A stretch of DNA of 64,000 nt, from IMG/VR virus record IMGVR_UViG_3300009081_000009, positions 64,001-128,000 of that record. The stretch is one strand, 5' to 3'. The notes beneath the pieces were generated by a model, which was not told where the DNA came from, ran no database searches, and saw nothing but the letters and a program-made list of their open reading frames with translations. The position numbers were made by a program, and so were the translations under genes. The stretch is from a virus. Shown piece after piece: positions 60,271-60,415 of this stretch. The stretch's first letter is position 1. The number at the start of each line of letters is the position of its first letter.

Positions 60271-60297
60271 CTAACTTGTTTTTAAAGGAATGATATT

Positions 60298-60348
60298 ATG
60301 ATTATTGCAACTGTATATGAACGTGAAGAGGAACGAATGCGCTATTGA
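60298..60348 (+). CDS. Putative nested attenuator leader peptide MIIATVYEREEERMRY
   Basis: SD AAAGGA; GAA-CGT-GAA-GAG-GAA run; terminator follows. Confidence 0.85.
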   Translation: MIIATVYEREEERMRY

Positions 60349-60380
60349 ACATGCGTAGTAAATAATCGTATTCGATTTTT

Positions 60381-60415
60381 ACCTCATGTTCAGAAGAACG
60401 TGAGGTTTTTTATTT
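60381..60415 (+). terminator. Attenuator terminator before Glu tRNAs
   Basis: ACCTCATGTTC-AGAA-GAACGTGAGGT-TTTTTATTT. Confidence 0.88.

Follow-up and report, generated by a model that had tools for sequence, protein, structure and literature searches.

What signal decides when a phage transcribes its own tRNA genes? The reason for carrying such genes is described as debated for more than 50 years (PMC10264068), and codon compensation and escape from tRNA-cleaving defences are among the reasons proposed (PMC10264068, PMC11555353, PMC11464382). An attenuator whose leader contains cognate codons would state what the phage monitors, namely slow decoding of those codons. A block of five tRNA-Glu genes in a phage genome raises this question directly, since an open reading frame (ORF) with Glu codons and a terminator hairpin lie immediately upstream of it.

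The DNA that we analysed, here called the window, is a stretch of 64,000 nucleotides corresponding to bases 64001-128000 of one 164,708-bp contig with a G+C content of 33%. The large terminase of this phage is only ~36% identical to terminases of T4-like cyanophages. A DNA search of a curated phage collection with positions 59700-61200 gave tRNA-level matches only, and a close relative was not found there. The genome has 57 tRNA genes, which are grouped into blocks by amino acid.

On the basis of comparative sequence analysis and folding models, we propose that the element upstream of the Glu block is probably a ribosome-mediated (leader-peptide) transcription attenuator that controls the five phage tRNA-Glu genes. 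Its anatomy, its conservation, the covariation of two helices and the genome-wide matching of leader codons to tRNAs can be read directly from the sequences, as described in the following sections.

A Glu-codon leader and terminator before five tRNA-Glu genes

All features of the locus are on the + strand. The last gene before the element encodes tRNA-Arg(TCT) (60197-60271). It is followed by a Shine-Dalgarno sequence, AAGGA (60285-60289), located 8 nt before the ATG (60298) of a 16-codon ORF, MIIATVYEREEERMRY (60298-60348, stop codon TGA at 60346-60348), which we call leader 2. This ORF lacks Asn codons and contains four putative regulatory Glu codons within 60319-60333: GAA at 60319, GAA at 60325, GAG at 60328 and GAA at 60331. 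An initial annotation, made from the sequence alone, had pointed out this ORF and its ribosome-binding site and had matched the four codons to the genes downstream. Both observations are borne out, as the block consists of three tRNA-Glu(TTC) genes and one tRNA-Glu(CTC) gene (60416-60718) and a fifth gene, again tRNA-Glu(TTC) (60997-61071; 32.9 bits in Rfam). Thus, the anticodons are TTC four times and CTC once, and every gene scores above the Rfam tRNA threshold. An 83-aa ORF (60738-60989; phrog_20427, no assigned function) is located within the block and would be co-transcribed with the tRNAs.

The hairpin that we call terminator T2, the proposed second gate, occupies 60381-60415. Its stem (ACCTCATGTTC-AGAA-GAACGTGAGGT, 60381-60391 with 60396-60406) has 11 pairs, one of them G-U, closed by the loop AGAA, and its T-run (60407-60415) abuts the first base of tRNA-Glu at 60416. 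The sequence TGAACATG (60346-60353), which contains the TGA stop codon, is the exact complement of CATGTTCA (60385-60392) in the 5' arm of the terminator, and is therefore a candidate antiterminator strand. Between these strands, an inner hairpin, AATCG-TATT-CGATT (60364-60377), is predicted. The 11-bp terminator with its U-tract directly before tRNA-Glu and the complementarity of the stop-overlapping strand to the terminator arm had also been claimed initially, and we find both as described.

Homologous elements in other phage contigs

We identified six homologous elements, namely the one in the window and those in metagenomic phage contigs L016, L001, L014, L018 and L089, and each is located directly before tRNA-Glu genes. 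L001 was reached through the neighbouring gene for a PARP-like protein, L016 and L014 through a back-translated pattern of the leader core, and L018 and L089 through the 83-aa ORF, that is, independently of the leader sequence. The corresponding leader peptides are MIMITVYEREEERMRL (L016), MTTIYAVYEREEERMHL (L001), MFTAFLEREEERLCT (L018) and MYALYEQESEEMDTT (L089).

Four Glu codons, three GAA and one GAG, are present in all six elements, and the last Glu codon is always followed by exactly four further codons before the stop codon. L014, L016 and L001 match a pattern that demands YEREEERM, so conservation of the core among these three is partly circular. Around the Glu codons the peptide changes. 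In L089, YEREEERM has become YEQESEEM, in which Gln and Ser take the place of Arg residues between Glu codons, the ends of the peptides vary, and GAA and GAG are exchanged synonymously among homologs. A drifting peptide with fixed Glu codons is what would be expected if selection acts on the codons and their geometry rather than on the peptide.

All six homologs have AAGG(A/G) at a distance of 7-12 nt upstream of the ATG, and the Shine-Dalgarno sequence, ATG and reading frame are together intact in five. The inner hairpin is predicted in every homolog, and its sequence differs among them; L014 has AUCAA/UUGAU, for example, and L001 has a stem of 8 bp that is rich in A and U. The frame of the Glu leader in L014 is broken by a gap of 2 nt (L014:715-728), giving MYAI and then a stop, while the RNA helices are intact; this gap may be an assembly error or the mark of a decaying leader copy.

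Several searches yielded chance matches or known loci. The YEREEERM pattern also matched L011, L013 and L015, by chance, inside high-GC genes. A second pattern, TGAAYATGYGTAGTAA, matched 34 loci, which are chance matches except for the already known L001 contig. A third, TRAGTATGTGCGGTWAA, led again to the L018 and L089 contigs and to one further copy with the L018 leader peptide (L096). Relatives of the 83-aa ORF were found at 74 IMG/VR loci, with tRNA genes within the fetched DNA in 19 of the 74, and they occur also in huge phages.

Covariation of two alternative helices

The 5' arm of T2 contains a strand shared by the terminator and the candidate antiterminator. In L018 and L089, this strand reads CATACTCA in place of CATGTTCA. 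For the change from CAUGUUCA to CAUACUCA, both alternative partners change to match. Because the six homologs fall into roughly two lineages, this three-way covariation corresponds in essence to a single evolutionary event, with a few lesser ones in addition. Specifically, GT in the shared strand has become AC, and AC has become GT in both the antiterminator strand and the 3' arm of the terminator. The strand at the stop codon is accordingly T(G/A)AGTATG in these two contigs, versus TGAACATG, and the 3' arm is GAGTGTG, versus GAACGTG.

Across the six sequences, 97% of the cells in the T2 stem are paired, five pairs are changed on both sides, and none of 500 shuffles reached the observed values. 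For the antiterminator, 97.9% of the cells are paired and two pairs are changed on both sides; when the partners were slid by 1-3 columns as a control, 19-54% were paired. RNAalifold recovers the T2 terminator. A further candidate helix, a second antiterminator formed by the Glu-codon stretch GAACGTGAAGAGG, which resembles the terminator 3' arm GAACGTGAGGT, was rejected, because the resemblance is lost in L018 and L089.

Modeling of the predicted switch

In our stall model, the mRNA is masked to 12 nt past the Glu codon in the A site. With a ribosome placed on the last Glu codon of the window leader, the predicted antiterminator has an energy of -15.8 kcal/mol and sequesters 10 of the 11 nt of the terminator 5' arm. 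When the spacer was shuffled with dinucleotide content preserved (n = 2000), antiterminators had energies of -5.0 +/- 2.0 kcal/mol, and none of the 2000 equalled the real one. Stalls on a Glu codon modelled for each homolog gave antiterminators of -7.9 to -16 kcal/mol. With the ribosome masked on the stop codon, the modelled antiterminator was absent in each homolog and the terminator had an energy of -13.8 to -21.3 kcal/mol.

These results bear on an alternative reading of the hairpin as a constitutive terminator, insulator or processing signal, preceded by a fortuitous and untranslated ORF. Short ORFs are common in AT-rich DNA, and translation of the leader is a prediction. Nevertheless, we judge this reading highly improbable, as the Shine-Dalgarno sequence, ATG and frame persist in five of six homologs, the stop-overlapping strand covaries with the terminator arm, and shuffled spacers yield no comparable antiterminator. 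Also, an 11-bp terminator that always acted before five promoterless tRNA genes would silence them.

Our favored explanation is attenuation, as the initial annotation had argued, with homologs that keep the leader ORF, Glu codons, stop spacing and both helices with compensatory changes, and with stall models that agree. We infer leader translation, ribosome stalling, switching and the physiological signal as follows. A ribosome would load at the Shine-Dalgarno sequence of leader 2. If the Glu codons are read fast, the ribosome at the TGA codon would cover TGAACATG, the terminator at 60381-60406 would fold, and RNA polymerase would stop at the U-tract, immediately short of the first tRNA-Glu gene. 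When charged tRNA-Glu is in short supply, the ribosome would stall at one of the four Glu codons, which lie 15-27 nt upstream of the stop codon, and leave TGAACATG free to pair with CATGTTCA, closing over the inner hairpin. This pairing would block the terminator and allow the polymerase to enter the Glu tRNA genes.

The antiterminator forms in the ribosome-free model too. The model thus suggests that the default state is "on" and that a ribosome at the stop codon would act as an anti-antiterminator. A general failure of translation would then also be predicted to switch the block on. For a 1:2 hairpin of the trp type, RNAalifold offers a weak 5-bp stem around the stop codon (A2 columns 44-48 with 62-66); this stem is partly broken in L014 and L089 and absent from single-sequence minimum-energy folds.

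The ribosome-free fold can be taken to favor a second alternative, in which the switch is real and Glu-unspecific. It would then report only whether some ribosome has translated the leader as far as its stop codon and would sense translation capacity in general, and the presence of Glu codons would be incidental. Read-through would follow whenever initiation or elongation is blocked. Moreover, four Glu in 15 codons has a binomial P of 0.011 relative to the phage's own amino-acid usage, which taken alone is a modest enrichment. We consider this alternative improbable, because four Glu codons are kept at a fixed distance from the stop codon in six of six homologs while the neighbouring residues change, and because of the genome-wide pairing of leaders with tRNA blocks (see below).

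A scan of 59700-61150 against Rfam 15 (E <= 1) revealed only tRNAs and, below threshold, matches to two families of sRNAs and to one of plastid 5' UTRs; T-boxes and the amino-acid leader families (Trp, His, Leu, Thr, Phe) were unmatched.

A candidate first gate upstream

The unit that contains the Glu block begins at an early-type promoter, TTGACA-17-TATATT (59741-59769), which would feed the whole unit. The next such promoter, TTGACA-16-TATATT (61083-61110), marks its end. The promoter motif (TTGACA-N16-18-TATAWT) has 17 sites genome-wide versus ~1 in shuffles. Downstream of the first promoter is another ORF, leader 1 (MEFNMTFTTLNNNNERECRSTETI, 59794-59868), with four Asn codons followed by GAA-AGA-GAA. 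Then come terminator T1, the proposed first gate (59894-59921, 12 pairs and a T-run), and a block of three tRNA-Asn(GTT) genes and tRNA-Arg(TCT) (59942-60271), which places these four genes between the two gates.

The initial annotation noted that the upstream leader also contains Glu codons. These are codons 2, 15, 17 and 22, and Glu codons are retained in L018 and L089. The codons of leader 1 match the Asn, Arg(TCT) and Glu tRNAs downstream, and its Asn, Arg and Glu codons correspond to the amino acids of all tRNAs that follow. Homologs of leader 1 interleave Asn, AGA and Glu codons, with the sequences ENRNNERENN and ENRNERENN (L018, L089). Modelled stalls from N11 to E17 of the window leader give T1 antiterminators of -16 to -21.5 kcal/mol, and for the Glu and AGA codons described here, modelled stalls preserve the T1 antiterminator at -16 to -24 kcal/mol.

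Between 59769 and 61083, we found no match to TTGACA-N16-18-TATAWT, in agreement with the initial annotation, and no match to the T4-type late motif TATAAATA. Since there is no promoter motif between the 59741 and 61083 sites, the Glu leader is expected to receive only transcripts that have passed T1. Transcripts from the 59741 promoter would carry leader 2 only once past T1, and the series arrangement predicts that a shortage of Asn or AGA decoding would yield Asn/Arg tRNAs only, while Glu shortage would open both gates. In logical terms, the outer gate would be an OR of every amino acid served downstream, with the inner gate responsive to Glu only.

Alternatively, the Glu attenuator might be un-nested, with an unrecognized promoter (middle-type, or an extended -10 at the junction of tRNA-Arg and the leader) giving one-stage control. 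In one homolog, L001, the interval from tRNA-Arg(TCT) to the Glu leader contains a 154-aa ORF as well as a consensus promoter, TTGACA-18-TATATT. The same ORF is present in L016, and it found only itself when the L001 copy was used as a search query. The L001 promoter implies that nesting is not obligatory and that the Glu module can also work alone. In the window, there are weak 9/12 promoter-like matches and an extended -10-like sequence, TGaTATTAT (60291-60299), which is not conserved in homologs. Against one-stage control, apart from the lack of early and late motifs described above, a transcription start downstream of 60299 would lose the leader's Shine-Dalgarno sequence and ATG. In L018, the + strand from the Asn promoter to the Glu leader contains no promoter match of at least 10/12. 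The same interval in L089 contains one + strand match, 10/12 at 1007-1035, but this lies inside leader 1 and upstream of T1, so the first gate would not be bypassed. Finally, the Glu codons of leader 1 are conserved and correctly placed. We therefore regard one-stage control as unlikely, though less so than the other alternatives. Two-stage control, as initially claimed, is supported in this genome by the absence of an intervening promoter motif and by modelled Glu stalls in leader 1 that are predicted to open the first gate, while one relative (L001) has its own promoter in between.

Leader peptides and tRNA blocks across the genome

A leader ORF precedes each of the eight tRNA blocks of this genome, with a terminator as well in all but the Pro block, and each of the other leaders is enriched for the amino acids of its own block. 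Examples are the Tyr/Met/Phe leader (MNMKRIYKYYRFIK...), the Lys leader (...SKQNKQKKQ...), the Gln leader (...QQQQQQ...), the Ser/Leu/His/Cys/Trp leader (MKSLSLHLSSLCSWLSS...) and the Asn/Arg leader (...NNNNERE...), and in the leader of an eight-amino-acid block, 25 of 27 residues are cognate. The true assignment of leaders to blocks is the single best of 40,320 permutations, which argues against the Glu codons being incidental.

Three pairs are arranged in series: the Tyr leader and the Lys block, the Lys leader and the Gln block, and the Asn leader and the Glu block. These are the three highest of 56 off-diagonal leader/tRNA matches, an outcome that would occur once in 27,720 under random ranks, in a test devised post hoc.

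An attenuator built from cognate codons would also mean that the supply of tRNAs is not constitutive but under feedback control for each amino acid. A broader proposal, which we consider to be evenly balanced between true and false, is that tRNA production in phages is on demand and governed by a hierarchy of codon-resolved attenuators. Outer leaders would list the codons of all blocks behind them and inner leaders only their own, and each operon would in effect work out which tRNA is in short supply and be transcribed only as far as needed. The likely purpose is the recovery of decoding once the host tRNA pool has been depleted, which could result from codon-usage mismatch, from decay of host RNA or from defence nucleases that cleave tRNAs. 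If this proposal is true, each leader is a readable label of the purpose of its tRNA block. The leader rule also helps to annotate small ORFs in phage tRNA arrays that now lack annotation; for small ORFs near the leaders, searches of Pfam and PHROGs assigned no function. Being short, modular and portable, the elements could find use as natural sensors that report how abundant or how well charged an individual tRNA is.

The Pro block (56736-57042, +) is the only one that does not fit the attenuator design. It has two tRNA-Pro genes, a promoter and an ORF ending in ...AALPPKGV with two Pro codons, has no terminator before the tRNAs, and contains TATAAATT at ~56856.

In the window, a leader, MKSLSLHLSSLCSWLSSPEYPRYM, and a terminator (40243-40045, -) precede a 16-tRNA array for Leu, Ser, Trp, Cys and His, and 15 of 23 leader residues are cognate. 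Inside this array, near 39710, is a consensus-like promoter, TTGACT-17-TATATT.

Similar leaders in other phages

The same architecture is found in the seven further leaders of this genome, in L061, L080, L037, L022 and L088, and in Tunturiibacter phage Tunturi_5. A scan of fetched loci revealed the leader design in unrelated low-GC phage contigs, for example, MKQFFKHTFKFGHKT before tRNAs for Lys-His-Lys-Phe-His. Like these other attenuator candidates of phage tRNA blocks, the Glu element combines a Shine-Dalgarno sequence, a short ORF of cognate codons, an antiterminator strand at or near the stop codon and a terminator abutting the first tRNA. It differs in being monovalent and the inner gate of two, whereas most of these other candidates are outer or multivalent.

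Tunturi_5 (PP885688.1) is a cultured 309-kb phage with a G+C content of 57% in the leader region. An unannotated ORF, MKTLCLSSYCLSSSLSLS..., and a terminator (L093:9362-9460) lie directly before its tRNAs for Leu, Cys, Leu, Leu, Tyr, Leu and Ser (three genes). The predicted attenuator design is therefore present in a cultivable isolate. In the uncultured 462-kb phage LR756500.1, a leader, MKAISVHIIHIWEHLLEEVNINIM (L092:9336-9410), precedes tRNAs for His, Glu, Val and Trp.

Comparison with known regulatory systems

In its overall plan, the Glu element is similar to the enterobacterial leaders trpL, hisL, pheL, leuL, thrL and ilvL, in which a short translated leader (here a predicted one) with cognate codons is followed by an intrinsic terminator. 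As in these leaders, a mutually exclusive antiterminator would be set by ribosome position (here modelled), and the distance from regulatory codons to terminator is ~75 nt. The genes regulated here are phage tRNA genes, in contrast to the biosynthetic enzymes controlled in enterobacteria. Also, the phage antiterminator strand overlaps the stop codon, so that the ribosome itself would be the anti-antiterminator, and we see no convincing 1:2 pause hairpin. The general logic of classical leader-peptide attenuation has been described (PMC1183508).

By analogy, the closest system controlling translation genes is that of E. coli pheST. The pheST attenuator, with its pheM leader, controls phenylalanyl-tRNA synthetase and senses the supply of charged tRNA. 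In pheST as in the phage element, leader-peptide attenuation would act on a part of the translation machinery that serves the amino acid being sensed. However, pheST is bacterial, has a single gate and encodes a synthetase protein rather than tRNA, and the two have no sequence relation.

T-box riboswitches likewise tie a choice between terminator and antiterminator to the state of one tRNA and thereby control translation supply for that amino acid. A T-box makes direct contact with uncharged tRNA by means of a specifier codon and the T-box sequence, and does not need a ribosome. The phage element, by contrast, has an ORF that is predicted to be translated, and no Rfam T-box match was found at E <= 1.

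Tandem arrangement has a precedent in the Salmonella mgtCBR leader, which contains two leader ORFs and tandem attenuators (PMC3641672). In both cases, two ORF-dependent termination decisions would be made in series on one transcript. In mgtCBR, the two gates are upstream of a single coding region and respond to different signals. In the phage, by contrast, the gates are separated by three tRNA-Asn genes and tRNA-Arg, and the outer leader includes the codons for the inner block, which creates the proposed nested logic.

Leader-peptide control is published for amino-acid operons. We found no account of such control of tRNA genes in the literature searched, which covers only a minor part of the subscription journals, and the extension to tRNA genes appears new within that literature.

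Additional observations

The gene that follows the Glu block (61199-62506, +) has its own consensus promoter and encodes the PARP-like protein mentioned above, with a WGR, a PARP regulatory and a PARP catalytic domain, the last matched at E = 5.5e-28. Relatives of this protein occur in 10 IMG/VR contigs.

ORFs for HNH-type endonucleases are found between tRNA genes or beside tRNA blocks in L089 (1393-1956), L014 (1-640) and the window (57099-57725), and tRNA-like remnants adjoin those in L014 and L089. This arrangement suggests that HNH ORFs are mobile insertions that reshuffle tRNA arrays.

Some tRNA genes are unusual. At 39227-39309 (-), ARAGORN predicts a tRNA that has a long variable arm and an anticodon of four bases (tata). 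It may represent a tRNA-Tyr(GTA) of class II whose loop is odd; the leader of the array ends in ...PEYPRYM. Nearby, at 38949-39032, is an unusual tRNA-Ser(ACT). In the LR756500.1 stretch (L092, 17601), a tRNA with anticodon CTA, assigned to Pyl by ARAGORN, could be an amber suppressor. The tRNA array of a related phage contains a tmRNA gene with the tag VEDTAYLMAA (L003:12412-12764).
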